Part shown: positions 995-34,226 of the stretch, in pieces | How positions within the stretch are numbered: the first letter of the stretch is position 1 | Layout of the letters: every line of letters starts with the position of its first letter | Assembly (NCBI GenBank): GCA_000934665.2 | Contig: JYFJ02003434.1 | Span: forward strand, 1 to 41,840 | Length of the DNA stretch: 41,840 bases | Origin: Catajapyx aquilonaris | Taxonomy: Eukaryota | Reading direction: 5' to 3' | Notes under the pieces: model-generated | Seen by the model: only the letters and a program-made list of their open reading frames with translations | Databases searched by the model: none | What the model was told of the DNA's origin: nothing | Made by a program: the position numbers and the translations under genes

Positions 995-3900
995 TTGAAG
1001 GACCATTGAAAGCATGGAATTTAAATTTCAGTTTGTTACTGTAATTGTGTAGCCTACTTTTTTTATTGCACAGGCATATCTGGTAATGGCTAGTATTGTT
1101 TCTAGATTCGGGTTCCCTATTTTGATTAGTTACGTGCATAATTACTAGGTTCTCCTGGGGAATGTAGTCATGCTGGCTGTGACTAAATGCTGGTTTGTCC
1201 CTTTTATAGAACCATAAGGTGTAATTAAAATAATTATATTACTGCAGCTTGAAGTTTCAACCGGATAATACTCGTATTATTGCAAATGATCACCTCCGTG
1301 AAATGAATCCGATTTTATGTGAGCTTGCAGGAAGATAGGAATGCAAGTAATCGCGGCAAACGGAAGGTTTAAGCGCAATCGTGAGCACCTCAAATGACGG
1401 ACGTTTTAGTGCAGGGAGGCGGGCCTGCACCAACCGCAACCGGTATATTTTAAAAAAAAGATGACATGTATTTTAAAACACGGCTGTACCCGTTTGATAG
1501 GCGTGTCCGGCGCGTAATGTACCGCGTAATGAGTAAAATGTCCGGAGGTGACGTAAAATTTCTATTCAATTTGATTGCGCTACAGCATGGCGGTTATAAA
1601 ATGGAGAATCGGCCGACCTGCTGCGTAAATTGGGTCGGGCACCAATATTCGCTAATAGGACATCAAACAGGCATAGCTGCAGAGTCGGCCTTGTCATAGT
1701 GGTTCAGCTGGATTGAGGATTGCCGCAGGTCTAGAATAAATGACCCGTGGCATAGATATCTGCGGGCGTATGAAGATAAATGTGTACCGTTAACGAGCCG
1801 TGGGAACATGGAAGCGGAGGAGGATTTCGGTGAGGCTGGGAGAGGGTATATAGTGGGTGGTAGGGAGGGGGGGGGGGGTGGAAAAGCATCGGCCCTGCAC
1901 CGGAATAAGTCATACACGGCAGCCAAGCAGCGGTTATGGGGTAGGATTCATTTGCATTCCGTTCCGCGATTGTGTCCACGTCCTACTTTTCGCGGCGATC
2001 CTTTGGCAATCCGATAAGCCACTCTGTCACTACCGTTTTCTGGAGGCCGCGCCGCATTGTGCCGTTTGCGAATCTATGCTTCAGTGGACGCACTCAGCCT
2101 TTTAGCAGCGGTGTACATAGAAAACGAATAACAATAATAATGGAGGGGAGGTAGGTTCTCTTTTGGAGGAGAAATGCTAACGAGGAAGGTTTTTACAGGG
2201 GGAGAAATGTGTGTGGTATGTTGGGAGGCGAATGGGGAAAGAAGCGGGCTCAAACGATCTGGGTTATGCACTGTTCAATAACCGCAAATGCCTTTACGGT
2301 TTATTTTGTCCCAAATGGCTCGGAGGAGAACTTGGGGTTGTAAACAAGATGAGACGAGGCATGCCACAAGGCATCTCAAAAAGCAGCATAACTTGCCTGC
2401 AAGTGCTCATTTTGTGCACTGTCGCACTCATCGGAAGTAGTGGGATACTTCAAGGTACTGTAACTGCCACTTTCCCTACAGTGATGTAAGGTTGACTACA
2501 CATTCGAATATAGGCTTGTAGCACATATTACTAGGAATTCCTAGATTATTAGAATCGGCGACAGCTCAAGTTCGAAGCGTTTGAAGCCCATAGTGATGGT
2601 AGTGTGTTTTTGTGTGTGTGAGGCGCCTCTTGAGTACATTATTTCATGGTAAGTATAGCCTGAAATTGCTTAAATAGGGTACAGTAGACATGCATTTTCC
2701 ACATTCCACGTGCTTACACACTGAATTTTACAGACTATCTTTGGGTAAAATATCCCTTCAATTGAATCAACAATGCAACTCATAAAAGTAAATTTTCTGT
2801 GTATTAGATTGAGTCAATTGGGACAAGTTTTTATTGAAAGGATCTGGTGCTAATTCTAGGGTAAAATGAATGAACCACCCAAATTTAGCAGATATTTATA
2901 TAGTAAAAAAATGCAAGCAATCACTCGCATATAAAATTACGGAACCTGTATCGTTATAAAATGGCACTTATTAACACGGATAGTTGTAATTTGCCTTCAA
3001 CCTAATCCCATTTGTAGGTTAAAATTGTGTACATGAAACAAAAAAGCACCTTGTAGGAAAGAACTCCTCTTTTACCTGCATGGGAAAAAATTAGACCGCT
3101 TTACTAGCCATCCATAATATTCACGTTATGTCCACATGTTATTTACCACAGCGAGCGGTTGCGATATGAATTGCACGGTGTTGAACGACCGAGTAGACAC
3201 CTGTAATCTGGGTTGAATGGCAGCTGCCTACTCGGGCGTGCTAATGCCACATATTTATAGACTAAATGCAAGGACGTGCCTCAATCTGGGAAAACCATGC
3301 CACGGTTATTTTTTGTGCGGTTGATCAAATCGAAAATTCGCAAGTTGGGTGACTGTAATTGATATTCACGCGCGAGCTCATTTGCCTTCGCGTTTTAGGA
3401 GCGGAACAATCTGACTCCAACCTCGCATTCTGGGAAAAAGAGCAGTCACCCATGGAGGGATTTTTAAAAAAAAGCCGAACTCTTCCCATCCTTCACGCAC
3501 GCTCCTTGACATCACGCACTCCCGTCCTGGAAGGCATTTAAACCTGTAATGCAAGGCAGGTGAAGTAACGAGGCGACTTTGGAGCTCAAGTTTGCAGCAG
3601 CCGTCCCGTAGTGGCATCTGGCGCGCCGACTTGGGACTCGCGACGTTCATTTCGCATTTTCGACCTGGCTCACATCGCCTATCGCATCGGACTTTGTTGC
3701 GAAGCCAAGCAGGAGAGGAACTTACAATATCGCGCCATCATTTTCGTGTGGAAATAATGAATTTTTTTTTGTAAGTCTCACGCAGGAAAGCATACCTGTC
3801 GGGATATTTAATGCCACATTTTTGATGCCCATTATCTCTGTGACGAGGCTGAAGAGATAAAGTGACATCTCGACACAAAGTGCTCCTCTGGTCCCCCATG

Positions 3901-4582
3901 GGCTAACTCCAGGACGGTTTCAGTGTTATTGTGGAAGACCCTGTACAGTTGGTAGTATTATTCCTGGAGAGGCTTTGATCCGTTGAGCGCAAGACCGGAG
4001 CAGCCCGTGTTTCTGAGGGCATCGGAGAAGACTAGTGCTGCTCACACAACACAAAACAAAAAAAGGAAAAGTGGTGTGGCGGTGATTCGAAGCCCCCTCC
4101 CACTAAAGATTAATGAAAGGGAGGCTGAGCCGAGAGTGGCGCCATAATATTTCCTGGCTGTGACTTGCATTCAGACCTTCTTCCTCCCTCCCTCCCTCCA
4201 ACCCCCTCCACTAACCCCCCTCCCTTCCCCACAACCCAGGCCTGTTTCAAGCCTAGAGTAGGCGTTGCTTGGCTGGCTGACTGATGAATTGGATTGTGCT
4301 GCTTCGGAGGGAAACAAGGAGGATTGTCACTTTTTTGGCGGGACAAATTAGAGGAGGTCTGCTTTTGTTGTTTTGTTCTCTCCAGAGAGCGAGGATGGAG
4401 GGGGTGGGGAAGAGTGGGAGGGGAGAGGGGGCAAGAGAGCGGAAAAAAGGAGGAAGTGCTAGGAAAGATTGAGGAACGACACATTTCAGAACATTCAGGC
4501 TATTGTCAGGCAGGAGATTGTTGTTGCTCGATTCTGTCTAGGTTCCTGACGCCTATTAATTGTGCAGTTACACGAGACACTG

Positions 4583-4848
4583 GGGTCATTTACCCGGCAC
4601 CCAATAACTGAACCCGGTGAAGATCTGGTTCAACAATAGGTTGGTTGTATTCACAGCACAACGGATCGTCTGACTATACGTCAAGGAATTCTACATTGTT
4701 CATTGGGACCAACCAAAAGGACTCGAAAGCACAAACAGTATAATATATTCATTCATGTTGTTATATATAAGTGGTTGGCAACATAGCATCCCATTAGTGG
4801 CCTGGATCCAGACCGGCTCCGGTGTAGTTGTTGCTGTGTAAATGGCCC
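4583..4848. mobile_element. Decayed MITE with degenerate terminal inverted repeats (PIF/Harbinger-like ends)
   Basis: Left GGGTCATTTACCCGGCACC versus reverse complement of the right end GGGCCATTTACACAGCAAC: 15/19 identical. Gapped similarity continues to about 50 bp (AACT..CCGG..TCTGG). Interior is AT-rich. No clean target-site duplication. The family guess rests only on resemblance of the GGGCCATTTACAC end to Harbinger-type termini. Confidence 0.45.
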
Positions 4849-7800
4849 TATTAATTCTTACTAGGCTGCTACATCGCTTGAACTATAGTTGCATGTCCTG
4901 CCTGCTTGTGACGCGAGTTTTGCATATTGACTCGAGTTCTGAAAGTTGTAAAAGCGTCATTGATGTTTGGCTTGCAGGGCGACAACTTGGTCGAACTTGA
5001 AAATTAACCCAACAAATGAAAGCCCTCGGATGCAATGGAAGGTTTTATGCGACACCTGCATTGCAAACTTGAGAGGCCGTAACGACGGAGGTGACATTTA
5101 AGCGGCCGACGTAATGTTTGGATAGGGAAGCACCACGCTTATCCACCTCTCCCAAACTTCCTGAGACAAAATGGAAATGCGCCGCCCAAGTCCCCCGCCG
5201 CTTTCCTCCTTGGTGACGTTACCCTAGTTACGAAGGTGGGTTTTTTGAAGTTGAAGGAGAAAAAAGAGGAGCAGTTTCGCCTGAGACAAAAAAAAAGGAA
5301 ACTTATTTTCCGGCCTGCTGCTTAACAGGATGCATTGTTTTCCCACGGCGTCTTGTTATTGTTATTATTTTTGTCGTTTCTTTTCTCTTCCTTTTTTTGT
5401 TAATTCAAGGAGGGGGTGTAGGGAGAGAGTTTCCTGGTGTCTGTGTTGCCACCCGCTGGCGCTTATCTCCCTTGGCAGCAAGCCTGCATGTCGCGGGGAT
5501 GGCCTCTTGGCGAATGGGCTTCGTCGAGGCCTCCCAACGTGGCGGCTACAAATGAATTCGGGCCCCGGTTATAAATGTGTCCCCGGTGCCGTTTTCCTTG
5601 AGCTATTATCTGCGCAATTTCCCTGCCATGCAAACCCACGACATACATATGCCCTGAGAGAGGACGTACAGAGCGACGGATATTACTACGGGACTGGTTG
5701 AGGAGTATGTGGCCAAGGAAATGGCGTCCAATAAATCGCCAGGTTTTACGGCTGATAGGTGGAGGGGGAAGGGAGGGGGGCGGACTTCATTTGCGGGTTG
5801 TAAGTAAAGGCTTGTCTCTTCCCTCTTTGTTGCCGAAAGAATGGTGTGGCGGAACTGATCTCTGATTTTCCAGGTCCCTGTTTGTATCTTGAGGCGACCC
5901 ATTATTACGTTTCCCGGTAATTACTCGACTTGACCCAGCGGGACAGTAAATCTTCCTGGTCTGCGTATGCAAAGCTACGCCAACTTCCGCCCCGGCTTTC
6001 ATTAAATCCATTATCTGCCAGGGCCAGTGTTGGAATGTTATCTCAGCGCTGTTTCTAGGGGAGAATGGCGGAGAAAGTGTTGGTGGGGGATGGAGGGGGG
6101 AGAGAGGGTTCAAGGCGAAAAGGTCTAGGTTGAAATTCGCCCCGTTTGCATTGTGGTAATTAGGTAATGTCGGTCTCGCCAAGGCGCTCGAGCGGAGCCA
6201 AAGATGTTGCCTGCAAGTGTCAAACCCGCGCGCAGTTGTGGAAGGTTTCAGGCAATGGGTGCCTCGTTTGCACCCTGCTAATTGGATAATGTCGGTCACC
6301 AAGTCGGTGAGACTCGGCGGGGAAAGTGTCATGCCGAGGCGACATGTGTGCTGCTATACCAACCCTGGTTGTCAGAAAAGGCGTTGGCCCGAATACGCCA
6401 GGCACATCTACCTACCTGCATACCTGCCCAAGTCCAGAGTTCAGGAGGTGGTAGGGAGAAATGTTGGAAACTGTCTACCCCAGCAACTAGATGAACACGT
6501 TGGATAAGCAACAATCATGGCTGATTCTTAAATTGGTATATACGAGTATGTAAACAATACGATTTCATGTGCTTTCGTCCAATACACAGTTAATTATTGC
6601 CATCATGGGGCAAGACAGTGCCACGATAGCATGCACGGTAGTATTCCTTGTTCATGATTCCGAGCAGAATTCCCGAGACCCCACGTCTAGTGCCAAACCG
6701 CTGGTTCTTGTGGTTGGACGAAGCCAGCCAAGGGTTGGCATGAACTAGCTGGAGCGGTAGGTGTGTTGTGAGGGGACGCCGAAGCCAGATAATTTGGCTA
6801 AGATGGCCCGTCCCCGCCGCTCTAATCGTGAGAAGTGGAGGAGAGGCTGGCTGAACTATGGGCGAAGGGGGCGAGAATGAAAGGGGGAAAGGAGGAGGGC
6901 TGGTGGGACCAAAGCAATCGCTTTCTCGGTTTGCAATTGGAGAGTTCATTACGCGGCGAGAGCGTGAAAGGTCAGGCGGGAGAAGCGGAGGCTTGTTGTT
7001 TTCTGCTGGCTTTTTCCCTGAAAAGCTGGAGGATTGCCCGCAAAGGAGATGGCGATGGATGCGTCCGGACCCGGCCCGTAAAACACAGCTCGACGTTCGG
7101 GTGCACTCACGCTTTTTTGCCCTAGCTCTTAATCCATTCGGAATGTCCTCAGCTACCGGCCCCATATTTTTAACCACTTTGGACTTAAATTTGGGTTTCA
7201 TTGCGCCATTCATCCCGATGAATTTATAGAGCTGGGAGCAGGGGTGGGGCTTAGTGCGTTTGGCAAATGAATTTCATCGCGTCGGCTTTAGCGACTTTTC
7301 CTTCCAGCTCAAATCCGCGTATTTTTTCATCTCATTCAGTGCCCTCCAAGTAGGTGACCCCACTTTTGTGTCGGCAGGGTGTAGTCGCATCTGACGGTTG
7401 TTTGAACCGAGAGGTAAATGATCTCTCCCGGGCTGTTGGCGAGGTATAACGGGATGATTGTTGCCGGTGGGATGTTTAGAAAATGCGCTCCCAGGCGCCG
7501 TTGGGGGCTGAGAAATCCGCCGAATGGAAAAGGCAGATCGGTCGGACCCCCCTTGGACCGGTGTGGCACTTAATGGAAGGCCATTAGTCGGCGCGAACAG
7601 ACTCGGGCCTTTCCCAAAGACTTTTCACCCCGCCGCCCCCGCCCCTGGAACCAACCTTTACTCGTCATCTGGCGCGCCCCACCTACAAAAGAGCCTCGGA
7701 ATGCACAAGCTTTGCCTGCATCTCTTTTCTCTCCCCCTTACCTCTTTTCTCTCTCTGCATGTTCCGTACGTCGCAACTAAGTTAATTAGAGGGCTCGCTA

Positions 7801-10800
7801 ATTTTCTTAGCATCCCCCCCACCCCCAACTCCCCAACGCCAGTAATATGGCGAGGTTTTCTTAAGCCTCGCAGAAAATCGAGTCGGTTTGGGCTTATGTA
7901 CGTAATTCCACTTGGACGTGGACTCAGCCCATGTAAACGTAATGGTGGATTTGACGCTTATTTGGAGATTATGACAAATCTTGGGGATTTGGAGGTAGGA
8001 GAAAGTTAAAGAACAAGCTGCCTCTTCCTCTTTCTCCAGCTCTTAAGCGCTCTTGAGCTGAGCTTGTGACAGTAAAAGCCCAGGATATCTGTTTTACTTG
8101 TGCAGAGATAATGTGTTTTGGTCCGGCAAGAGTAAGTGGACCCGAGCAATATTGCGAGACATAAGGCGTCATCGCCATTCCTTATTTTTGATGGCTTGTG
8201 CTAATATCCGCTGCAATAATGGAAGGAAGTCCTGCATTGTAGGGGGAGGCCGAATTTCGGGAGTGACCACTCTTGTTTGGTGGCGATTTCGCGTGTGTAA
8301 TCCCAGGAAGTTGAAAGGGCCGGTTCCTTCGGGACCCTGCTTTTGGGGGGTGTCTGGGGGGGCCGGGGCCAGCAAGCAGTCAAGTTTGATAGGCAATTTA
8401 AGCCTCCGCAGCGGATGTGGGTTAAGTGCAGCCAAGGCTGTAAGTCCAAATTATGTGTCTTGAGAGGCCGTAGGTTTTTGCGGGAAAAAGCGGGCGGGGC
8501 ACGCGGAGAGAGAGAGGNGGGCAGAGGACGTTATCGGGGTTTGATTGGAGAGGTCACGTTCGGTTATACGGGAAGGCCGCTTTTGTAGCGAAAATGGGAA
8601 TCCCATGCAAGCACGCCAATTACGCCTATCCCCCTTTGAAAGCGGCGCATTGGAAAAAGCATTTTGTTGCTTAACAGCCCGTAAGAAGAGTCGCTTCTCC
8701 TTCAACGGAATTACCGTTTTCGCCAACGGGATTGCCAATAAGTGTCCGCCCTGCATCATTCCACTTTCTTTTTTCGCAAACGTCGCGGCCAAATAAGAGA
8801 GAGAGAGTCCCAGCCTGGAACAATTCGGGTCTGGAGGTGAATGGAATGCCTAAATCATGCGCTACGAAATGAACGGTGGGTAACCCCCTCCTTTTCCCTG
8901 GCTGGGGTAGCATGTCGCTGGCATGAGGCAGGGTGTGTAAGTGGCTCAACTATGGTCGAAGGAGCTACACCCACCCCCGAATCTTGGTCGGCCATCCGCT
9001 GGGTTCCCAGGCACCAAGGCGGAGGATCCCCATTTGGCCATGAAGGGCTGGGCTGAGGAATGAAAGGCCAGGACTCCATCACGTGGACGAATCGCCGCCG
9101 GACACGCGAAACCAAGCCGCGTTTTTAAAAATACGGGAGTTCCATGACACCTGCTGTGCCACGTTCAGGGGAGGCCTCGTTTTTTGTGGGCTATAGGGGG
9201 AATATGTCCTTGATATGCGAGAGAAATGACCGGGTGTATTTATGGGTGTTTACTGCTCTCCAAACTTATAAGTGATTACCAGGGACATGGGGGATGAAAT
9301 CCGGGTAAATGAACCCTCCTGATTGGACAGGTGTCCTACAGATTACCAGCCGATATCAGATATTGTGGTTGTTGTTGCCGGAATGCAGTCAAAATTAACT
9401 GAGAATTTTGATTTTTATGAGCGTATGCTCCTGGGGTCGTCTTTAGATTTTGAGGTTGCATTCAGGTATACTGGTACTTGTGATCGTGATGTATCAAATG
9501 GTGTATCCTGGATATTGCTTTTGTTACTATTCCACTATATGTCCCTTAAAACTTTGGCGATATTCATGTGGTTCATGTTACTTTGTCCTTTGGTGAAGTA
9601 AATACGGATGGGATTTCAAACACCAAAGTAAGGGTATAGTGTGTACTAAACACTGTAGTTATATGCCAGAGAAGTCGTCTTTCGTACCATTGGCATTGAA
9701 TTAAGAAAAAAGGCGAAGTAAACAAATTCGATACGATGCGCTTTCCTTCCCATTATGCACATCTGCTAACGTTGGGTTTTTTTCTGCTTTTACTCAGTGT
9801 AGCCTGGGGCAGAACTCCAGGAACAGACTTTTACGAATTTAGCTTTCAAGCCTGTAACGAGTGTTTTTTCTATCCCAAGAATTTTGAAGCCAGTGACATC
9901 AAACCTGGCTTGATGATAGGACATGAACAAGGGTCAAAAGGAAGATGTTCTCATTATGCGGCCTATTTCACGCCGTTTGATAGCTCTCCTTTCTGATTAT
10001 TCTGGAAATTGTTTTGTTACCTCTTTCAATATAGTGATACAGTTCACTGGAAATGGGGGAAAGGAGGTGGAAGCGGGCGGAAGACTAGATACTTTCTCTG
10101 TTCAGCACTATAAGACCTTTTGGATGTTGTTGCGAATATCGACAAGCGTCACACTGACTTTAAGGCAATGCATATGTGTCAGAACAACGAACTGACGCGC
10201 TATCTCTCCTGTTCCAATTATTATCGAGTTCTCTGCTTAAGGCACCACACACAGATTTCTTCTTTCCCCCCCGAAAGAACGTCAAAAGCCCATACAGTAT
10301 TTACATGTAAAATTGAGCATTTGAAATTCACTTGACACAAACAAGAGGGTCTGAGGGATTCGCCCTTTCCTGTTTACCCCTCCTTCTGGTTCAGTGAAAA
10401 CAGATTTGCACCACTATGCCAGACACTGGTACTTGGGGGTCTTCCTGTGCACACAAGTGCTACTCCGTTGATATGAATGTAAGGAAGGTACTGTTTGGGA
10501 GGATTCGTGAATGGACAGGTGCCACTATAAGCGAAAGTAGTGGGTAGTCCCCATGAGGTTTTATTTTTCTTGGGCAGCGCCCTCTTCTTCTTATTCTCAG
10601 GTCCGTGCCGGCGCGCGCTTCTCAGGGGATTTTTGGAATCCACAGCAGATTAGCATAATGGAAAAAGTTTCGGCATTACGGGAGCCCGGCAACCACGCCG
10701 GGAGAGTAATTAAAGTCTTTTTATGTTGGCCTTTGCACGCAATTTACTTTTCAAAATAAGTGGCAGCGTCGACTGAAGATTTTCTGCGGCAAAGGCGCCA

Positions 10801-13098
10801 GGAGGAAGAGGGGATGGTAGGCGGGAGAAGAATTGAACTTTTTTTTCCCCCTTCTTTTACCGAGGGGGTGTTAGCTTTACCTTGTGTGGATCCCTTCTGA
10901 CAGGTGAAGGAGGATATGAAAGCAGACCACGCCAGCTTTATAGTGACGTCGGTTTTCTAGTTAGACGGCTTGATTACGGTCGGGGTTAGCCCTCTGGCTC
11001 CCCTATTTTTTTGGCACTTTTTTTCTCGCTACCCGATTAGTAGTCAGGTGGCTATCTGGAAAGATTAGGCTAATTAGCAGCAACCAGTTTACCGCCCGGA
11101 AAACCAGCCAGGCTCGCCTTTTGTCCGGAGACTTTTCCTCTTTTGGCAGCCACCGACGATCGTCCGGGCGATTTTAATCGCGCCCGGATTACGTTTCCCC
11201 TGATTAAAGCCCCGGTTACCACTCTTTAAGATGGTTTTGTAATGGCTTCATTAGGCTCGGGCGCGATTGGTATTTTCCAACTCATTGGGACCGGGGAGGA
11301 AATCGGAAGTTCAATGGGAAGCTTCTTTACCCCTGTGTACTGTTTTATGGCCGTGTATGGGATTACTTGCCTGACGCGGGTTTCAGGCATTCTAAACCGT
11401 TTAGTAGAATGTCCGGCGGCCGAATCATTTTGTTCGATTATACGATTGTGGGCTGTCTGTTTGGCTGAGGTGGGGGGAGAGTGGGGAGTGGGGGCATGGG
11501 GGGAAAAGTGTGTACCGAATTTCCTGCTGGTATTGTGGATACTTATCTCCCATTGCCTGCCGTTGGCATACGCCCATCACACGGGGTTTTGTTTATAGCG
11601 AAAATCAAAACGAATTACGGCAACGAAACAGAGGAGATTAACAATGTAATTATTTTGTCTCATTATTTAGCGCCGCTGGAAATTCTGATGGCCGTTTTGT
11701 GCCCACGTTGTTAATGAAACATATCCCTGTCGTATCCGGTGATTAATTGTATTTGATGTTTGTATTCGAAATCATAATAAAATAACCATATTGTGATTAT
11801 TTCCAATAAAAAGGACATGCGGCTAATTAATTACCGGATCATTGTGCATTTCCAATGGGGTTGCAGTGGGCCATAAAAACTGGCCCCAATTTTATTCTAT
11901 GCGGAGCGATTAACTTTTGGTGCAATACTGGCTGAAATTCTTGATGGTGGCCCGAGCCCCGTGTAAATGGTAGGCAGGCTGCATTAATAATCTGTCACAA
12001 ATGTTGCAGCTGTAACGACGATGCTCTCTCTGGATCCGCGTAATAAGTGGTGTGAAAGGCGGCGTTTCTCAAAGTCCGTGGATGATTTCATGCATCAGCC
12101 ATAAAAGATGAGGAGCCGGAGCGAAAAGGGCGACTTTTTGGGTGCTGCCAGTTGGGTGAAGGGGCTGGCTAATGACCGAAATGAAAACATAAAAGCAGCC
12201 CCTAGTTCGCCATTTGCATGATGAGAGACACGAACTTAAACCGTGTTGTCTCCTCGAGGGTCCATTCCGCCAACAAGCCGAGCGGAAGGTCATCGAAAAT
12301 TTCCGAGCCGACTGAAGGAAGCTAAAAAGAGGGGAGCAGCGCAAAGGCTATTTAACCCACTTCTCGCAGGCAATTCGTTCTAACTGAAACGCGGACGTCC
12401 TCTATTCAAGGCATGGCATTATACAAATAATGGCATGGAGTTTTGCGAAAGTGAACTGCTCTGCTAGGCCCCCGATCGGAGGTTCGTGCAGAAACTGGAT
12501 CTAAAAACGCATTATCGCTGGGGTGTTTTGGGGGGAAGGGAGTGGTCAGGGAGGGGAAATGGGGGGTATGGCTGTCCTTTATCACTTTTGAATGATAAGA
12601 AGGGTTGACGTGCGCCCACCAGCTGATGTTTCTCACACGTTCCCTTCGATTTAATCTCCTTTCGTGTTTGGGATCATCAGCTGGGCGGTTTGCTGTTCCG
12701 AGAAATCAAAATCGCCGCCGAAATCTCCTGATCGCATCGGGATTTCTCCCTCGAAGCGTCCCCATTTACTGCTGTCGTCCTTTCCAGAGAGAGACATTGC
12801 AGTCGGTTTGTGTCATGAAGAAGGCCGGAAGGAAATGCTGGTCCAATTAATTTTCCGATTGTTTTGGGGGGCCAGATAACCTGTCTGCAGAGTAACTACA
12901 TTGTCATGCACCGTTGGAGCTGCCCTGGGAGGATTGATTAATTTTCACGTACATGCACTGTTCGGGTGTCCGTGTTGGCGTGTCCAAGTCGCTTCCATTA
13001 CCTTCCTTCCCAACCTGACAAGTGAGCCGGGCTTAGAACTCAATCACTAGAGAAGCAAAGCGTATTATTAGTTGCATTCCTTTGCCGTCAAGAATGGT

Positions 13099-13185
13099 CT
13101 AACCAATAATTTCATTCTTGCTTGCAGGTAAGCCTCCCGGTCTTCATTCTCTGGCCACGAATCATTCCAAATGCAACTAGTAAGT
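13099..13185 (+). other. Candidate recursive splice site (ratchet point) with 52-nt cryptic exon
   Basis: CTAAC branch motif at 13099-13103; no AG from 13093 to 13125; TTTCATTCTTGCTTGCAG acceptor ending 13127; GTAAGC donor immediately at 13128; second donor GTAAGT at 13180-13185. Confidence 0.6.
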
Positions 13186-15529
13186 ATACCGAATGTGTGG
13201 TTCGCACGCAACAACGTTTCAAGCGTCTAAAAAGTCCAGAATGTTTGTATTGGTATAGAAGCGTTCGTCACTGCAGTATTGTTCATTTGCACCGCTCTCT
13301 ACAGGTAGGAATTTTACTCTCCGAAAGCATATACTTTCGGCGCTGCTGTAGTTCACTTTCCTGCAACAAGAGTAGCTTGCCTGTTTGCGAATATTCCAGA
13401 TGACTGATGAAGGGACTAAACGTGAATGGGAAGTTTACCATTGGCTTAAATAATTACTCATTGCATGCATGGATGTGAAGAAAAAAAATCTCAGAATATC
13501 TATAATGTTCACGAAAATATGCAGTGCTTTTTGAAGCTGTGTTTAAAATTTAAAAATGAAAGTAAAACCATTATTATTCGAGCCGCTGCAGATGACAAAC
13601 CCGATTAATTTGACCTGTAAAAGAAAAGCAGTTTCCAGTGAAATGTTACGAATGAACGAGTGACATTTTGTCATTGGTTCAACCAAACGTGTTAAAAAAT
13701 TGAAAATATCCTTTATGTAGTCGTCAATAGTAGCCTATAATGGTTTCAGAAAAATAGCAAAAATGTCCAAATTTTCCGTGATCCATCGCAAAACCCCCCC
13801 GAAAATTATATTTTTGCCTCAATTTTTTTTTTCTTTCATGCCTTTGTAGCACAAACTGGAAAATAATAAATGCTAATTGACTAGCTGCGAACAACAATCC
13901 AGGGTGCAACAGATGGCCACTGTTCAGAGGTGACAAGTCTTTTTACTGCTCTATTTCCGCCATTATTACACGTGTGAGTTAGTTATGTTAATTAATATTC
14001 ATGGTGTAAACTTAAGCATGCAACTTGGAGCATGCTTTTATGAGGTCCGTTATTGTGTCGTTACTGCCACGACGCCCATTTGCGAGCTGAAAAGTGCGTC
14101 ATGTGTGCCACTTCTGTGGTTGGAGTGTGCCACACCCTGTGGTCAGGACGCCATCCTTCCAGGCCTCACCTTATGCTAAATGAGGAAGAGCAGGTGATCC
14201 GGGGCTGGGGTAGGAAATGAGGATGCGTCTGTGTTGGGAGATGTTTCCTTTCCGGGGTGAGGGGAAAGAGAGGCGTCATCTGGTGAAGTATGAAGTGTCC
14301 CCCCAGCATCCCCGTATACCTATAGCCTGTGCTGCACCAGACTGGGCAGGTCCGTCACATGGCGAACTTTGCGGAGGGACACTGATGTCGGCTGGGATGG
14401 TGGGGTGGAGGAGGGTGGGGAATGGGAATTTCATATTCTCGACGGGGAGGAAGACCTGTGGTCACTTTAGGACTTGTCAATGTCACATCCTGCATCCGCA
14501 TGATATTTACTTGAGCGGCAACTAATTAAAATGCCGACGCTCGTGTGATGGTTTTCATATAGATTTCAGAACTATTTAATCGCCTTGCTGCTTTGCTGCA
14601 TATTTGGTGTGTGGGTTTGTATGGTGTGTACAAGGTATATCAGTTACTGAATGGGCTAGATGCCTCAGACCAGAAGTCATCTCTGTGCATCGTGATGAAA
14701 GTCGCGCGCTGCCGTATTTTGAAGCGGGTGAGTGTCAGACGGCTTAAATTTGGCAAATAATCTGACAGTAATGCGGAGCTATCTCTGAGCTATTTAATAA
14801 ACGCGCAGGCATCGCACTTGTAAATTCCGTGTTAGAGGGGTTGTAATACGGCGCCAACTTTAGGCTTGAATGAGGTGTTTTTGCCTAAACAATGAGGCAT
14901 CCATCAAAAGCAGCTTGGCATAATTTTTATTACTAAAGTTTCAGAAAATTAATTATGAGCTTGTTGGGCATAAAGAGAGGGGGCTAGAAAGTTGGGCATA
15001 AAAATTACCTATCTCATCACTGATGATGAAAATAATGACTTTCCTCAAGTACCACTCCTGTACTTCTATATTACGTATAATTCGCATTCAGTGGGTGTTT
15101 CGCTGTTTAAAGCGTGTACCAATAAACTGTCACAGTCTGTCATCCGCCACTTTTGATAGGTAATAGTATAGTCTAATAATACAGAAGGAAATTTTGATTT
15201 CTGTTAGTCCGATGCATCGCTTCTCCCTTTTTAGTCGTATGCTGGTGTCTGCGTGGCCTAAATGCGGGATGGTAGTTGGGAGATGACCGGCATAAGGTCA
15301 CGTCGGGGCCTGGAGTTTTGTCATCCGGAGCGTCCGGTGGGTCGCGGAAGGGAAGATGGATCGGGTAGCCGGTGCGGTGAAATTGTGGCCATCCGTATCC
15401 CCTTATTTCCCGCAGATTCGCTTTATTTCTTCCCCGCCAGGACCCCGCCTCTGATGAAGTGCCGTAATCAAAGAGGGTGCAAGTCCGGCTCCGCTCTGTT
15501 TGGCCGGTCTGGAGGGAAAGGAAGGGAAA

Positions 15530-15549
15530 GGGGGGGGGGGGGGGGGGGG
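15530..15549 (+). repeat. Poly-G homopolymer (G20) followed by an N
   Basis: Read directly; the N at 15550 makes the length uncertain. Confidence 0.9.
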
Positions 15550-17174
15550 NAGGAGGCGGGAATTGGGTCCGGATAAGGAAGGAAGATGAGTCGTTGGTGT
15601 GTGCCGATGAAAACACACGCTTTCATTTCAGGCACCGGTATGGCCTCCCTAATGCCAGGGCATCGGGTGGCTCCCCGGGGGAAGATGCGCTCAAAATGGC
15701 GGTGGTGGATCTTTTTCCAAGGCGGGCACATATTGGGCTCGTCTGGTCCGCGTTTGGCTCCAAGAAAATAAACTTTGACTGCCGTCGTCTCCTTCGCGGT
15801 CAACATAAATGGGCTCGGAAAAACACCGCCGCGGCATTGACTTTGAAATTTATTGCATGAAAATGGGCTGGACTGAATGGAGCCTAGGACACCGGGTGGT
15901 CCACGCTAAACTCGCCTTACCGAAATGATGCAGAGTTTGTGTCACTGGATGTTATACAGGGCACTGATGAAGGTGCGCTTCTGCTTGATCAATTTCTATA
16001 GCGAAATTGCTCTAAATCAGTGTTTCCCCCAGTTGTGACAGTAAAAACGACACTTACGGCCAGTAGTGTCAACAAAGGTAAATGTCCATTTATGAATAAA
16101 CGTATTTACAGCACGTAATGAGAAATTTTCTCCTTAACTTTAGTTGATGCATCAGTCCCTTAGGCACAAACTATAGATTTGCGATGCTTCTTGCCGAACG
16201 GCCCATTTGAGAGTCAATGCGACTCGAGCAGCTCGTGCATTGCAGTTTCGGCAATTTATGCCATTTTGACTGGAGGGCGTGGTTTGTCAGCAGGGAATAG
16301 GGCCCGCACTTTCAGCAAGTTTAGGACCAGTTCATGGATGTAGAATTTCTCGCGGAAATTTTGAAATAGAATTAAACAGCAGAAAACTACTTCCCTTTGT
16401 TTATTACAAGTTGTGAATATGAAAAAATTAGGCTTGTGTGTAGAACAGGTCCACCTGATGTGTAAGGGTGGTAACTTTATAGGTTCGCCGCCGGTATGCA
16501 CCAGCTCATGTTCTGCAGATGCCCTGCACGCCAGCCACTTGGATACTTTGTACACGGTTAATGACACAGACCTGCGTGTGTGCGAGAAACCGCCGATGGT
16601 GTTCCGTGCTGCCATCTGCACTAGCCAATACAGCTTTTCTCTATATAGAGGCGATTATATGTACAGTCTGCGATCGGTTGGCGCCAGTGGGTTCGCTATA
16701 AATTTTAGTAAACGATCCCTGAGGCTTCACGTTTAGTAATAATGAAAGTTTCGCAGGAATCAGCAGATCATTCATTATCAATTACGTAGTTCCCTCCTCT
16801 CGAGCAAGTTTCGGTCCCTGGAAACAAGCCACCCGTAAGGGACGTCCCTTTTATTGTATCGTGAAGGGGAGGTTTCAGTTAGTACGTCACGTCCAGTATC
16901 CCCTTAAGGAGATGGAGCCAGAGCTATACCAACGGTCTCATTAATTGTTCAGCCTGTTCCAGGCCGTAAAGCTAAATTTACGGAATCTATTTTCTCGGTT
17001 TATGTATTTTCTTTCTTTTTTTGTGTTCTTAGCCATTCCCACAGCCCTTCGTATTTTTCTTCTCTCCATTTATTTTTAATTTAGCGTCTCGTCCGTTGAA
17101 AGAGGGAGCTGCTTTATTTGACCCTAATCGAAACTTTATTGCGGATCGCGGAGTTACCAGGGTAACAGGGGAAC

Positions 17175-17252
17175 TTCCTCTCTTTTTTTCTGCTCCTTTC
17201 TTTCCCTCCTCCTCTCCCCCCTTTTCCCCTCCTTCCCTCTCTCTCCCCCCCC
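17175..17252 (+). repeat. Polypyrimidine low-complexity tract
   Basis: About 78 nt of C/T interrupted by a single G. Confidence 0.85.
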
Positions 17253-20200
17253 AACCCCACCCCTGGCTTCATTGAGACGAAATTCATGGCTCCGGCTGGA
17301 AATGGACACTCTCGGCTCCTTCCAAGGGACGTTTATGTCCTGAAGTTGGCTGCAGAAGAGAGAGAGTTGATCTTGCAGGTCTTTGCGGTGGCAAAGTGGA
17401 TTTTTTGAGGGACTCGGAGGATCGACTTTTGACTTATTAGGTGCGGGGCCTTCCCCGCCCCTGCTCCTGCAACGAAAATCCTATGAGAGGTTGCTCGGGG
17501 GGGAAAAAAGCAGAGGAAGAAAGCAGGGGCACACAGACACACATAGAAACCGGTGCGCCTTGAGCCTCTTCCGTCCCGTTTTTCGGCATCTCCTTGCATC
17601 TGGAACATGCGCCGAGATGGTAGGCAGTAAATAATAGATCAAGGAATGCTAACTCCATTCCGGCTTTGAACAAGCCGGTCCATTTTAACAGCACCCAAGA
17701 CGCGTTATTTTTCTTTCCCCGTATCCCGGAGTCGATGGCACGAATTCCTGGCGAGAGCTGCAGGCAAAAAAGGCGAGGGAGAAAGGGAGAGAAAGAGAAA
17801 GAGGGAAAGAGAGGCACGACCCCATTCGAGGGGAAACAAGAGTATATATTGGTGTAGTGTGACTTTGAGACTATTAAGTGCACACGATCAATATTGTCTG
17901 GTGGAGTTTAACTGAAACTGGATTCTTTTTCTGGAGGGGGGAACCGACTCTTATGGCTGTGCAGGATTTCTCAGCAGAGTTTGTCCTTATTCACCTTCCC
18001 ACGACCTTGCGCTGATTTTGTCGCAAGGTTTATAAAAACCGAGTACAGTAATGTTGGTCAGATGAAGACGAGATATGAAAGCATGCTGTCAACTGTGTCA
18101 AGGAATCTTTAGACAGGCTTATTAGCTCGCCAGATGTTTTTTTCTTCTTCTGGGACGCAAACCGAGGTGAACTTTTTATAGAACCCGTAATAAAAGGTGT
18201 ACCAGGCGTTCCCATGCGAACATGTATGACTCCTACGCATATTATTCGAAAATAGAATAATGCGGAACCGCAAACTCCGTCTGTGTAATGAGAGAGCGAC
18301 GATTTTTTTTTTTTTTTGGTTGAGCGTCTTGTTTGATATGATCAAGAATGTTATATCCGCAAACTTCAGGTGCTGCTGTGTAATTATACGAAGGCCTACA
18401 TTTAAGAGCATGCCGACCAGAGAGGTAGAAAATCACTAACCTTTTCGGACGAAATCTAAAGCCAAACTTTGTTCTCGTCGTGGAGAAATTGCTTGCAAGC
18501 CGGTTTCGTGGAGACCACACTATTACAACCAATTTCTCAGACACTCTTCCCCTCCTGCCCCAATGTTGCTTTCTCTCTCTGCCGAACAACTTGGGGGTCC
18601 CCTTTGCCTCAAATCGCATTTCACTTCATAGAATTCATCGCGAAGGAAGGAAAGAAGCGAAGTCTGGGGTTTGTGATGTGCGGGGGAGGTGTTTTAAGAT
18701 TGCCATGCGGGAGATAAAAGTCATCCGACATCTTTCAATATTTTTTTGGCAATTTTGTTCCCTGCCTGTCTCACTCTTACTTGAACTTGTCATTCCACCG
18801 GCGATATTCCGAGGTTATATTTCCTATCTGTGGAAAGAGCTTCCATGTCATCTGCTTTTTTGAATGATGTAACTGCTCTATCTGCTGTTATTCGGCTAGT
18901 AACTTCTGGTTGTTAGTGGTTTGCCAAGTTACTGGCAGTAACAACTGCGCATTGGTTGGTGTCACGGTTTAAACCCATAACTGTGAATTATTACGTGGCA
19001 TCATCTCTTGCTTCATGGCTGACTACCTGCGGTTCAAAGAGAAACGTCGCGATGATGTTTTTGTCACGGGGAGTATTTTTTTGGGAACCCCACTTTGATG
19101 TGAATTGTACCACGCCGCTGCTTTGTTTAATCAACGTTTTATTAAGCTTCAGACACATTCGGCCCCGGGCGTGAAAAAGCGACACTTTCGGGCATCGCAT
19201 GCGACGTGAGCCAGTGGGCAGAAAACCCCCCGGAAATTCGAGCCGTGCATCACATGTGCCACACCTGAATGTAAATGAAATTAATCAGGAAGTGGGTAGC
19301 AATTTAATTGGCTGATTGAATGACCGGGAATCATACCAGTCGAGAGGTCAGACTACAATAATTTTGTTTCCCCATTTTCCACTGCAATAATTTAATTCAC
19401 TGTGACATCTCGTGTCAGGCTAACCGATTCGGTGAAATTACTGTATGTACTGTTTCCAGGAGACTAGACCTGGATTTTATTTGTCGCGGGAGGGAGGGCA
19501 TCCCCTCCGCACACTCCCCTCCAGCGAGTGAAATGCATGTAGCAGTTCCCAGGTTGAAATTCAGTGGAATTCACCCTCCCATGGACAGCCATTTTCCCCC
19601 CTAGGTCCTTTCTTGAAATTCTATCCCATTTTTTTTTCTCTCGTTGTTGTTAACGGACGAGTGCTTCTGGCACGGAACGAGTGCAAAAAAAAGGTGGAAA
19701 AAAAAGTAGTGACAAATCCAGCGATTCGCAAACTAGTTTTGCCAGTGCCATCCCTTATCATTATGGAAGGGGTCGACCGCAGTTTTCCGCGTCGCTTTTT
19801 AGCGTCCATCAGCCGGTTATCTGTGTACAAGCGGAACGTGCCGTAAAACAAGGGGAAGGGGTAGAAGACAACGCCTGTGTTTCGATAACGGCCGTGGGAT
19901 GAGCGTTTCGTCACGGAAGTGTTGCGATTTGGCCCTCATAACCGAGGGATTATTTCCGTTCAAATTCGGCCGGAGCCTTTATACCTAAATCCCATCCTGG
20001 AAGCCATGGGTGTACTATACGCGACTACATGTTAGGGCCAGTCCGCAGGAAGCATCGGCGCTTAGTTATTTGTTGCAGCTTGTACTCGTGCAAGGCAACG
20101 TTTGATTTGCAAGCCTCATAGTCAGGGGGCGCCACCATCCGGCAACAACCAGACTGAATTCCGATTGTCCCAAACTTTTGTCAGGTGCATTTTTTGGAGC

Positions 20201-22359
20201 GAATGGTTGCGTCCCATGCTAGAGCTGCATTGTTGACGTGGTGGCCATGCTTTTAGACCCATCTTTTGGAGTGACGGCCAACTTGAAAAACTTGGCTTCC
20301 CGGTTCTCTCTCTTTTTTTTACACCCTCTCTCTCCCATGGTTTTGTGCATGATTACCAGAGCGTGCACCCAACTTTTCAACACACGTATGGTCATTTTCA
20401 CCCGTGTTCGTTCATGGCCCGTACCGGGGAGCGGGTGGGGTTGTTTTCGGGGGCGGGGTTTCTGCATCGGACCGGCACAGAGCGGTGGGTGGGATGGGGG
20501 AAGGGGAGGTTGGGATTGCTACAGTGTAGGCTGTCAATAATTGCAATATGTACAGGGTAGTCATTATTTGCCACCGACTAAAGCCGATAGACTCGAAATG
20601 GGGGACCCTCTAATCTAATATTCGACAGTTGGGTGTAATTAGTTTTGCATTAATATGTCCAATTGATAATTTGTAGCAGGGCTGGTGTATTTTAACGGGC
20701 ACTCATGATACGAGTTAATAGAACTGCGTTGGAAGGAGGGGTGGGGGCTTGGAAAATGGGGATGGGGGGTTGTAGGGGAAGTGGTTGTTTCCAATGTGGG
20801 TTTAGGCGAATGGCTGTGTGATTCCGTAATTGATGTGGTGTTCCTGATCTGAACAGTGGTTGATGTAGTTACACACTCTTCTGAATTCGTTTCACGCTGT
20901 ATCGGTTTATGCACTGCAGGGGGAAGAAGGATGTTTCGAATTTGCGATTCGCATGTTATGAATAACAGTAGACAAGCGGAGAGAAATATTGCCTTATCGC
21001 AGTAAATGGGGATGAAATCCCGACCCAATCCGATTACGGGATTTTGCCGACAAATTGCTATCCGTATTAATCTCCCCCAAGTACTTCTCTTTGTAGCTTT
21101 TTTCCCCTCCCCCTACAATACAAAACTGTGCACAATTGTTCGCATCCATACGATTGGCCCAAAGTGGGCCCCCTCCCAAAAAGAGAGCCCCCGGCCCCAT
21201 CTTAATTTTCTTCTGGCCCGCACCCAATCGTCTGACAATCCCGAGGGGTAAATTCTGCTTGATTACAAGTTGGTTAACTTGGGAGAGGGAGGGGTGGGCT
21301 TTCCCTCCCGCCTCCCCAATTTTCCGTCCCTCAGTCTCAGACCATTGAAATGTGAGCGTAAAGAACTTAATAAATTTCTCTCGAGTAATGGATCCAGTAA
21401 CAATCCCTTCCCCTCCCCCCTCTTCTGTTCCTCTACCACCACTCGACTCAACCTCCTCGCTCGGTTTCCAAATTGAATTGCATACGTGTGCACGGCAGCG
21501 TGACATTGGAGATGGAGATCACTTGGCTATGCTGTTGCCTCTGCGCGAATGATTGCCTGTGGTAGCCGACCTTAGTGCTCCCAAATGCTAAGAGAAACTC
21601 CAGAGGGCTGGCTGGGTGGGGGAGCTGCCAAGGATATTAATTGCCGCAGCAAATAAATTTTATTATTTGGAAAATAATGTTGCCGTCAGGGAGGAGAAAA
21701 ATTGCGGGGTTTGCTGGTGTCAGGCGCGTGTTTGCATTAAACGGTGGGAAACACCCGAGTGCTTTTTAAGGTAATTCGCCGTACATTAAGAGTGGAGAGA
21801 CCTGCTCAAACTCCCGAACAGTTATTGTAATGGCAGGAAATCGATAAGATAATATGAGTAAGCGTTCATCGACGAAAATTGCTCGGAGACGGTTTGGCAC
21901 CAAATATACAGGTCGCTGCATTGCCCAGGTCTGGCTCGGGTCAAATGGTTTGATCGTTTACCCAAGCAACCAGCGCAAAGAGAATCAGCATTAAACTGAT
22001 TGATGGGAGTAAACAATCCATGCCCGGAGCCCCCCTATACCCCCCTTTGAACTGGGGGACATGGGCAGTGCACCACCCTGTATAAATATTTCGGTGCAAA
22101 GTTGTAGGTTAGCGGCGTGGAACACACGGTGCGAGGTTATGATTCGGCAGTGGCTCCATCCCACCCACCGCCACACCCTCTGCTGCCCCCGACCACCGCC
22201 CCGGTTCCCCCCAAAACTCTAATTCAATCTTTATGCGCGGGCCGACATGTTAAATGAATCAAAAGCACAACGAGAGTAATTAGTTGCCAGATCACATTAC
22301 AGCTTAGTTGGTCCAGGCACGTAAATGGAACGTTGCAGGCGTGTGGGAGGGAGGTAGAA

Positions 22360-22391
22360 GGGGGGGGGGGNGGGGGGGGGGGGGGGGGGGG
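22360..22391 (+). repeat. Poly-G homopolymer (about 31 G) with internal N
   Basis: Read directly; N at 22371. Confidence 0.9.
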
Positions 22392-25300
22392 TTGATCTCT
22401 GTGTGCCCCCCCTCTTTTGCCGAGGTCGAGGCTTCATCCGGGAACTATTACTATACTAGTAGCGCCCGGAGCCTCGTGGCTTATCCGGGCAGAGGTCAGG
22501 AAGTCCAGGCCAGATAATCTCAGCTTGTCCTGCCTGCTTTTTACGCCTTGGTACTTTGCAAAGACGCCTACGTAATTATACTGCCAAACAGTCGCTTGCT
22601 ATTACAGTGTTTTGTACCGCTAGTGCAAAAAAGTTTCTTGAACTGCTGTTGAGCACGCCAGTTTGAGCGTCATTATCAATGAAACAATCCGTAAAATATG
22701 AATATGCTGCGTTATGTACTCTCAATTACACAAATGGCATATTTACTGCCACTGATTGTATTGTTTGTCATGTACGCGTTTATTTGTACAGAAGTATCAA
22801 CTTTGCCTCGATTTGTTTTAATAATTTTGATGTTGTCCAAAAATAATGGCGATGGCACGCAGAGGGGCTTCCCGCCTGCATTATGGGGAAATATTTATTC
22901 TGCGGCAGTTAATAATCTGAATGCGATTTATTTTTCTACCATGCAGCTGTGACGGAGACTTGTTCACTTCCTCTACTGTAAACAATATGGTGCGAGACTC
23001 TTGGCGGTCGATATAATGGCGGCGTGTGTTGGAGAGTGACCTAATCCGTGTTCTAGTGTGAACTTGTTAGAGCAGTTAATGTAATCAGACCCTTCTGAGG
23101 TAAGAAGCCCAATTCAAGCAAGTGCGTGAATTATTAGCCATAGTGTAGCAACGCCTTAGAGCGTGTCGCAAGAACACTTATCATTGCGTACATTTTTCAG
23201 TAGGGCCAGGAAGTAAGAGATTGTAATCACCCCACTATTAATACGTTTGTTTCGCCCAGTCTGGTTCAATTATTAATGTGTCTGGTGCAGCAATATCAGG
23301 ATTTTCGGGGGTGGGGAGGACGGGTGGGTGGAATTTTAAAAAAAAGGGGAGTGTGGGGGGTTCTACGAGTGTGCGGTGTACCGCTGTACGTGCAATCATT
23401 TTACGCTAAGCCACGGAAAGGAAATGAAACAAACCGCAATGGGAGCCAGGTTCTAATAAGACCACGAGCTAAGGAAAGTTATGAGTGTAATGTAGATAGA
23501 GAGAGAGTGAGGCTTTTTGGGTGGTTCCATGGATAGGGCCACATGGGACGAAGGGTCTCTTTATTCCCCCTCCTTCTCTTCCTTACCTTCCATTTCTTCA
23601 TCCTTTTTGGAGGCTTCCGAGCCCGTCTTGAGTGTAAGAGAATGCGCCTTGCTCTCCGAGGCAATTTTTGGTACGACCGGGCGTCGCCGTCACTCTCAGG
23701 CAAAGCTCTTGCCTCCTTTGACATCCAAGTGCCCATTCCTTTCTATGCACGCATGCATTTTCATTATCCTGCCCTACCTTAGGAGAAGCTCCTGATGGAG
23801 GGGGAAGGGCGTGACGTTGCCACCCTTCAGGTAGTTGATGTGGTGTGTTGCCAGGCAAGGGTGACACACAAATGGAGATGTAGATGGAATTATAAGGAGA
23901 GGAAGAGAAAAATGGAGTGGGTTTAGGGCGTCGCTTGCTTGAAGGAGGACAGGGTCGGACCTGCGGGGAATTTGTTGACGAGAAGTTAGCACTGGCCGTG
24001 TAGCATTTACTTACCCTTTAATATACTTGCAGGTTACCTAGAGCGTGTGAAACGAGCGAACTTATGATGCGGAAGTCACTTGGTAATCTTCCGGCACCAG
24101 GGAGGGATTGCAAGGAATTTTGGAATATCAACTAATTCTCAGTAATTTTGTGCGTAGGAAGCGAAAACGAGGGGGTTGTGCGTCGCCGAGACTTCATTAG
24201 CCATAAATTCTCATTTTCTTCCGCTAGAGAAACGCGTCGAGTATAGTAATTTCGGGGATGTTGCACTTCTTGGGGTGTGTGCGGGGTTGGTAGACGATGC
24301 CCTTCGGGGAGAGTGTTTGAAAGACGGCGAGGGGAGGTTATGGGGGTCTTCGAAGACACGGTGTCTCTTTGGTTATGGATTCCGCTGGGAGAAGGGGGAA
24401 AGACGAGGACCAGAGTAGATGTCGCCTTGAGGAAATATGCTCCCCACGTGGCAATAAACACCGCGAAGGGCAAAAGCGATTAAAAGGGAAATGGCTGCAT
24501 TCGCCCATTTCGTATAACAATGCGTAGTTTTTACAGCAGGTTTGATGTTGCTGTGGGACTGGAAGCATCAAGAGTGATTCTCATATTGCACTTATAAATT
24601 AATTTGCTTGTAATTAAGTAAGATACATTATGACGATCTTGTGTAGATGATATGATTTGTGAAGGCGAGTAATGGAAATTATTTTCGTGTGAATGAGAAA
24701 ACATGAATGACTCTTCGCCATCCTGGCCCAGTCTTCGGCAATGTCATGTCAAGGTTGTGAATTATTTACTGCGACTAAAAGGATCGCTTGCCAAACGAGA
24801 CAGCAGTAAGACTGAAGAATCCGTCCCTATTTCTGACTTTGATTCAACCCATGTGCGCCGGAAAACTAGCCGCCGTGTACTGTACAGTATGTGTCATGTT
24901 ATCTGTGAAGTTTCAGCATGAAATATTTCACTGGTGCAGTTCCTTGATCTCTTGCGTGGATATTGAATTTGAGCATATTGAAGCGCACAATGCATGTGAA
25001 AGTAGGAAATGGCGCAAATCAAATGGACGTACAGCACTCTGCGAATGGTTCCTGTAGCAACGGTTGACAAGGGACATTAGTTCCTGGTGGACGAATATAT
25101 GGGAAGGACGAACGTCCATCACGAGTCACAGGAAAAAAAGTAGTGATCCTCAAAGGCTTGCAACTCGACGACTGCAATTTTCACCGGGGGCCGCCCTCGG
25201 CATAACTTGGTGCTTCCCTTGGTACTGCTTTCCCTGTTTCCTTCCCCCCCTGATATATCTATTTTTTCTATCGCCGTTGGTACGACGTGCCGGAGGAGAA

Positions 25301-28707: not shown

Positions 28708-28808
28708 GAGAGGAAGAGAGAGAGAGAGAAAAAAATAGGTAGAAGAGAGAGGAGAGAGAGAGAGGGAGGGAGGGAGGGGGATAGACGTAGGGGAGGAGGA
28801 AAGGGAGG
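28708..28808 (+). repeat. Polypurine GA/GGA-rich low-complexity tract
   Basis: Pure purine runs at 28708-28735 and 28741-28781 with (GA)n and (GGGA)n units. Confidence 0.9.
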
Positions 28809-30724: not shown

Positions 30725-31068
30725 TGTCTAATCGCCTTCCAGTCGTAAATATGGCTCTTTTCCCTGCTCTAAGCGGACATGTCCCAGTTAAACGTGATAA
30801 GTGAAAAAAAGGGCTGGGGAGATAGTGACGAGTGGAGCGATGGAGGGGATGAGGAGTCCCATGATTGAGTCGGATTCTGCTCGTAAAAAGGGGAAGAAAT
30901 TTTCCAGCCCCTTATTTTCCTTTCTTTGTCATGCCCCCTCTCTCCCTTCTGCCACGGGATGCAGTATTTGTTTTAATCACAACTTTCTCCCAGATAATGC
31001 GGTCGTCGTTGAAGCACGAAAAAGGGAGTCCTGTAGCAGCAAGTGAGGGAAAGGCAGGCAGGGAGAAA

Positions 31069-31088
31069 GAGAGAGAGAGAGAGAGAGA
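31069..31088 (+). repeat. (GA)10 microsatellite within a longer purine-rich tract
   Basis: Read directly; followed by (GACGGAGA)-like units. Confidence 0.9.
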
Positions 31089-32940: not shown

Positions 32941-33135
32941 CAGCTAATGCACTGTAGCTTTCAGGTAATGTTCTATTTAGCTAACTTGTGTGGATTATCA
33001 AGCAAGCTAGTGACACAATCACTTAAGAGCAACACGTCTCGTATTGCTCTTAAGTAATTGTGTCACTAGCTTGCTTGATAATTCACACAATTTAGCTAAA
33101 TAGAACCTTACCTGAAAGCTACAGTGCATTAGCTG
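32941..33135. repeat. 195-bp foldback inverted repeat (96-bp arms, 3-nt spacer), possibly a palindromic MITE
   Basis: 32941-33036 is the reverse complement of 33040-33135 with 5 substitutions and no indels; spacer TCT at 33037-33039. Confidence 0.95.

Positions 33136-34193: not shown

Positions 34194-34224
<31 letters not shown>
34194..34224 (+). repeat. (GA)15 microsatellite
   Basis: Perfect dinucleotide run, read directly. Confidence 0.95.

Positions 34225-34226
<2 letters not shown>

Follow-up and report, generated by a model that had tools for sequence, protein, structure and literature searches.

A splice-site-like array in apparently non-coding, single-copy DNA

The window, by which we mean the whole stretch of 41,840 nt that was analysed, contains on its + strand a compact array of splice-site-like elements at 13099-13187 (Table 1). 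A branch-point-like motif and a pyrimidine-rich tract precede an acceptor that runs directly into a donor, and a second donor follows downstream. A preliminary description had listed CTAAC at 13099-13103, the junction TTGCAG/GTAAGC at 13127/13128 (the slash marks the putative splice point) and the second donor 52 nt on, and we find every one of these elements where it had been placed. In the sequence read at 12900-13400, A13102 and the acceptor end at G13127 are 25 nt apart, and CTAAC is the sole YTRAY at the candidate site whose A falls within -36 to -21. Read in one frame, bases 2-4 of the putative exon form a TAA. The second donor is the only GTRAGN donor that lies 20-110 nt downstream of any of the nine AGGTRAG sites of the window. 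A further AG/GT at 13295-13312 on the + strand, 177 nt beyond the candidate, follows a good pyrimidine tract (ctctctacag/GTAGGA) and has a weak donor; it ranks 6th of 255 such sites by the crude score used below.

Table 1. Elements of the candidate recursive splice site and their positions in the window
Feature	Position	Strand	Remarks
Branch-point-like motif CTAAC	13099-13103	+	putative branch A at 13102, position -26
AG-free zone	13093-13125	+	33 nt, includes the pyrimidine-rich tract; nearest AG upstream ends at 13092
Pyrimidine tract	13108-13125 (-20 to -3)	+	13 pyrimidines in 18 positions
Acceptor TTGCAG	13122-13127	+	T13122 and T13123 at -6 and -5; C at -3
Regenerated donor GTAAGCCT	13128-13135	+	abuts the acceptor with zero spacing
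Putative cryptic RS-exon	13128-13179	+	52 nt; 52 mod 3 = 1 (3 × 17 + 1)
Downstream donor GTAAGTAT	13180-13187	+	would define the RS-exon

The DNA around the array appears to be non-coding. Its GC fraction ranges from 0.43 to 0.52 in 2-kb windows (about 0.47 overall), and the observed/expected ratios of CpG, TpA and GpC in the window are 0.80, 0.77 and 1.05. The genome as a whole (about 250 Mb of contigs) has a GC content of 46% and a CpG ratio of 0.80, a weak depletion that we take to argue against a vertebrate; the GpC and CpG ratios of the window are presumably also unlike those of D. melanogaster. The window has 287 stop-to-stop ORFs that are 60 aa or longer, and none of them reached the curated cut-off of a Pfam family; the four matches below threshold had E values of 0.0016-0.029. 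One of these four, a Galaxin-repeat match in a 71-aa ORF beside the candidate (13222-13434, - strand; E 0.0031, 17.9 bits against a cut-off of 28) was set aside as noise because 137 ORFs were compared in that scan and the translation was unconvincing. The translations of the ORFs around the candidate are not protein-like, and a period-3 signal was seen in none of the 600-nt windows. Likewise, no Rfam family reached its gathering score in the window and no tRNA was found there. A window that lacks coding signal in this way fits a giant intron and an intergenic desert equally well.

We find the candidate site to be single copy and correctly assembled, because independent contigs from the DNA runs, spanning 10177-15549, differ by at most one base and one gap, with a word depth equal to that of the flanks. 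The stretch is contained in four DNA runs from a single sample, which is probably its source; in two of these (X1 and X4) all 30 bins are covered and the depth is even. A fifth run that carries the same species label (X5) gave no contigs on 3128-23127 and has hardly any of the stretch's words, a result that weighs neither way. The DNA-run contigs report no variants within 13099-13187. Elsewhere there are two signs of a second allele: an alternative contig of 120 nt at 10087-10206 has four base differences at about one third of the depth, and another at 13490-13494, about 310 nt downstream of the donor of the candidate exon, has three 1-nt deletions. In the search for related sequence no look-alike windows were found, and the 22-mer and 19-mer cores each had no match in metagenome contigs.

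Other features of the window lie farther from the array. A near-perfect hairpin at 32941-33135 has 96-nt arms that are 95% complementary and a 3-nt loop. The only matches to Rfam at the E-value threshold fall within it (32964-33112, both strands); they are to plant families, MIR6135 (65.8 bits, gathering score 99) and MIR2606, are sub-threshold by gathering score and mainly reflect structure. The hairpin may represent a foldback element of the MITE type or a gene for a hairpin RNA, and its arms contain TTTCAG/GTAAT on the + strand and TTTCAG/GTAAGG on the - strand. Two poly-G tracts, each about 20-32 nt long and interrupted by single Ns, are present at 15525-15550 and 22345-22391. Independent contigs break at both tracts and join them to one another with a varying number of Gs, and word depth rises there 3-4 fold, so the true tract lengths in the assembly are uncertain.

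Strand asymmetry and the contribution of chance

The two strands of the window differ in composition along its length. On the + strand G exceeds C (skew 0.08-0.09) and T exceeds A (skew 0.04-0.06) in 14 of 14 3-kb bins, and both excesses persist after purine and pyrimidine runs are masked. TG/GT-rich and GA-rich words are about 1.5-fold more frequent than their complements (854 TGT vs 540 ACA), purine runs of at least 15 nt number 43 vs 30 pyrimidine runs, and the GA/GGA-rich microsatellite-like tracts at 28708-28792, 31053-31128 and 34194-34247 all have their purine strand on +. Bergman et al. 2017 (PMC5786239) describe an excess of T over A on coding strands generally, joined by an excess of G over C in vertebrates and of C over G in invertebrates, and give intron skews of only about 1-1.5% for D. 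melanogaster. The skews of the window are far above these published transcription skews. They are also ambiguous as a strand signal, because T>A points to the + strand and G>C, by the invertebrate rule, to the - strand. Polyadenylation signals and donor-like words gave no usable strand signal in the window, since their counts track base composition.

The main rival to a functional reading is chance, by which splice-like words would have clustered in non-coding DNA and nothing would be spliced. The ambiguous strand asymmetry is in keeping with chance, and so is the lack of enrichment of AGGTAAG, which occurs 3 times on + and 4 times on - (the simulated expectation for AGGTRAG is 3.9 and 2.6, respectively). 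It had been estimated beforehand that the core 8-mer CAGGTAAG would arise about once per window by chance, and the counts bear this out with one occurrence on each strand. We ranked all AG/GT sites of the window (150 on + and 105 on -) by a crude, threshold-free score, in which the candidate comes first of the 255. Nonetheless, of 2500 windows simulated for each strand, 30 on + and 22 on - had a site that equals or betters its core by this score, a point in favour of chance. When the downstream donor is added to the score, these numbers fall to 1 of 2500 (+) and 0 of 2500 (-).

A fuller set of six features gives the same picture of a combination that is rare. We defined the set as AG/GTRAG, TT at -6/-5 with a pyrimidine at -3, at least 12 pyrimidines in 18 positions, an AG-free zone spanning 20 nt or more, a YTRAY with its A at -36 to -21, and a GTRAGT 30-100 nt downstream, the last of which is found at 3.0% of random + positions. 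Among the nine AGGTRAG sites on both strands only the candidate has all six, and the runner-up has two. In an order-3 Markov simulation the six features occurred together in 1 of 3000 windows on + and in none of 3000 on -. When the rate at which the flanking features coincide in the actual sequence is multiplied by the number of cores, the expected count is 2.2e-4 (+) and 2.9e-4 (-). The chance expectation for the whole set is thus about 3e-4 per strand and window, and empirically the chance of the full combination is about 5e-4 per window. The thresholds were picked after the site had been seen, and the true chance rate may be several-fold higher than these figures; with such a rise allowed for, it stays well under one per hundred windows.

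Chance also gains from the way in which the site was found, as it was chosen as the best one after the sequence had been read, and chance would be the sole source left if the organism had no long introns or no recursive splicing. It is opposed by the rarity of the full combination and by features that played no part in the discovery, namely the TT at -6/-5, the position of the branch motif and the prevalence of GTAAGC among fly sites. We regard chance as a substantial possibility, somewhat short of an even one.

Likeness to ratchet points and a possible mode of use

Ratchet points follow the consensus (Y)nNCAG/GTAAGT (PMC5126111). Duff et al. (preprint, 10.1101/006163) describe 197 of them in 130 Drosophila introns of 11.3-132.7 kb, from which recursive segments of 2.6-63.6 kb are removed. 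In that set 196 of 197 sites have TT at -6/-5, compared with 43.8% of all introns, and the mapped recursive branch points lie at -36 to -21 and are A in 79% of cases (10.1101/006163). Cryptic RS-exons in flies are about 50 nt long, mostly out of frame and followed by a downstream donor (Joseph et al. 2021, PMC8605326), and most fly introns longer than 40 kb contain recursive sites (Pai 2018, PMC6110457).

At the level of sequence, the candidate agrees with everything that the ratchet-point reading predicts. At TTGCAG/GTAAGC an acceptor and a donor, both of strong consensus, are juxtaposed. T residues occupy -6 and -5, and the motif match to CTAAC places an A at -26, within the published branch range; neither of these two features had been used when the site was first picked out. 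The donor GTAAGTAT lies 52 nt downstream, at the distance of a cryptic exon of about 50 nt. For comparison we took the S1 table of Pai et al. 2018 (PMC6110457), which by the account of that paper covers 539 candidate fly sites, and counted how often selected strings occur in it. AGGTAAGC occurs 43 times and AGGTAAGT 37 times. GTAAGC is therefore as frequent as GTAAGT after AG in this table, and the C at +6 of the candidate, despite looking weak, is typical of fly sites. In the same 539 sites TTGCAGGT occurs 128 times, GCAGGTAAGCC is present in seven sites, and the 16-mer TTGCTTGCAGGTAAGC is common to the candidate and one fly site. The flanks of the candidate, AGGTAAGCCT and TTCATTCTTG, occur 0 times each in the table, and no ortholog is therefore visible there.

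The host of a ratchet point is expected to be a very long intron, longer than 11 kb and on average 45 kb, with the site on the sense strand. For introns longer than 20 kb, Burnette and colleagues in 2005 reportedly observed an enrichment of stringent matches on the sense strand, with antisense matches at chance level. It counts against the reading of the site as a ratchet point that the crude-score ranking shows no other good candidate on the + strand across the 42 kb, although fly segments reach 63.6 kb (10.1101/006163). The reading is also weakened because an intergenic desert fits the same data and because recursive splicing is documented in the cited literature for Drosophila and vertebrates only. 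If, on the other hand, the organism splices recursively as flies do, a site of this anatomy would be far more probably real than accidental.

Altogether, the array is, as judged by sequence, a strong candidate for a recursive splice site (ratchet point) of the Drosophila type with a 52-nt cryptic exon, which would be read on + within a very long intron. The preliminary description had inferred that such an intron is removed stepwise at 13127/13128, an interpretation that is partly supported. We are evenly divided on whether this reading is true. From the array we infer the transcription of the locus, its strand, a host gene and the use of the candidate site. In such a case the CTAAC branch site, together with the pyrimidine tract and the TTGCAG acceptor, would recruit U2AF and U2, and U1 bound at GTAAGTAT 52 nt downstream would cause 13128-13179 to be defined as a short cryptic exon. 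Joining of the upstream exon to 13128 would then rebuild a donor made of the exon end and GTAAGC. Either this rebuilt donor or the competing downstream GTAAGTAT would next remove the remaining intron. If the rebuilt donor wins, no trace of the candidate site would be left in the mRNA; if the downstream donor wins, the 52-nt exon would be included and the frame shifted. Recursive splicing by exon definition of this kind is described for flies and vertebrates (PMC8605326, PMC6110457).

The outcome of this competition would depend on the strengths of the two donors. The downstream GTAAGTAT matches the consensus at +1 to +8 and the regenerated GTAAGCCT at +1 to +5 only. Since the downstream donor is thus at least as strong as the regenerated one, the donor-competition model (PMC8605326) would predict inclusion of the exon unless the end of the upstream exon adds pairing. 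The exon had been described earlier as frame-shifting and normally skipped. Its length upholds the frame shift (Table 1); the skipping is insecure, with GTAAGTAT at least as good as GTAAGC.

The two donors also bear on other readings. The interval 13128-13179 might be an ordinary short exon (cassette, UTR or ncRNA) that is kept in a mature transcript, and its GTAAG start would then be accidental or mark it as an RS-exon that is expressed, as the Ubx microexons are. In favour of this, a good acceptor is followed after 52 nt by a very good donor, GTAAGTAT, which equals or exceeds the regenerated one in strength, and expressed RS-exons are on record (fewer than 50 known in flies and many in mammals; PMC8605326). 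On the other hand, 52 nt is not a multiple of 3, TAA opens one frame, there is no coding signal anywhere nearby, and genuine exons that begin with GTRAG are expected rarely. We therefore consider a short exon of either kind improbable.

The regenerated donor could also stand on its own, as the ordinary donor of a non-coding or UTR exon that ends at 13127, with the acceptor-like features incidental. CAG/GTAAG is the general 5′ splice-site consensus, and the junction fits it well. However, each of the three frames has a stop within about 60 nt upstream, so that no coding exon can end at 13127, and an ordinary donor would not account for the branch motif, the pyrimidine tract or the AG-free zone of 33 nt. 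This makes an ordinary donor very improbable.

Comparison with known recursive splicing

A real ratchet point at this locus would mark a giant intron, and the direction of its transcription, in an otherwise featureless 42-kb stretch, and would add a recursive splice site to a genome that has none annotated. It would also show that such sites can be found by a sequence-only rule, which asks for the AG/GT core with TT at -6/-5, for a branch window and, about 50 nt on, for a donor; in simulation the rule gives false positives in about 1 of 2000 windows. Recursive splicing is already well described, and one candidate site, if real, would add a case to it, which is a modest advance. We consider it possible and rather unlikely that the array functions as a ratchet point in an invertebrate that is not a drosophilid; the fly-style rule (TT at -6/-5, TTGCAG/GTAAGC and a cryptic exon of about 50 nt) would then predate, and reach beyond, the two lineages for which it has been shown.

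Vertebrates offer one comparison. In their RS-exon recursive splicing (Sibley 2015, as cited in PMC8605326 and PMC5126111) the exon is defined by a downstream donor, after which the regenerated donor and the RS-exon donor compete, and the candidate has the elements for both steps. Fully suppressed intronic recursive sites are few in vertebrates, nine being noted in PMC8605326. The candidate differs in its setting, where the CpG ratio of 0.80 presumably speaks against vertebrate origin.

The Ubx microexons mI and mII are 51 nt long, frame-preserving, deeply conserved and found in mRNA, whereas the candidate exon is 52 nt long, frame-shifting and known from sequence alone. With these microexons, and with other expressed RS-exons, it shares a plan in which a consensus donor forms the start of a short exon, about 51-52 nt long, and splicing to that exon regenerates a 5′ splice site.

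The intronic ratchet points of Drosophila melanogaster offer the fullest set of likenesses. Among the differences, the pyrimidine tract of the candidate ranks with the weaker ones when set beside those of ten fly motifs, and its flanks are found in 0 of the 539 sites in the table of Pai et al. In common with the fly sites the candidate has a juxtaposed (Y)nNCAG/GTAAG, TT at -6/-5, a putative branch A at -26 and an AG-free zone, followed by a downstream donor and an out-of-frame cryptic exon of about 50 nt. It also lies, as they do, in a long, non-coding, single-copy setting, and its extended core TTGCAG/GTAAGCC itself occurs among the fly sites in that table.
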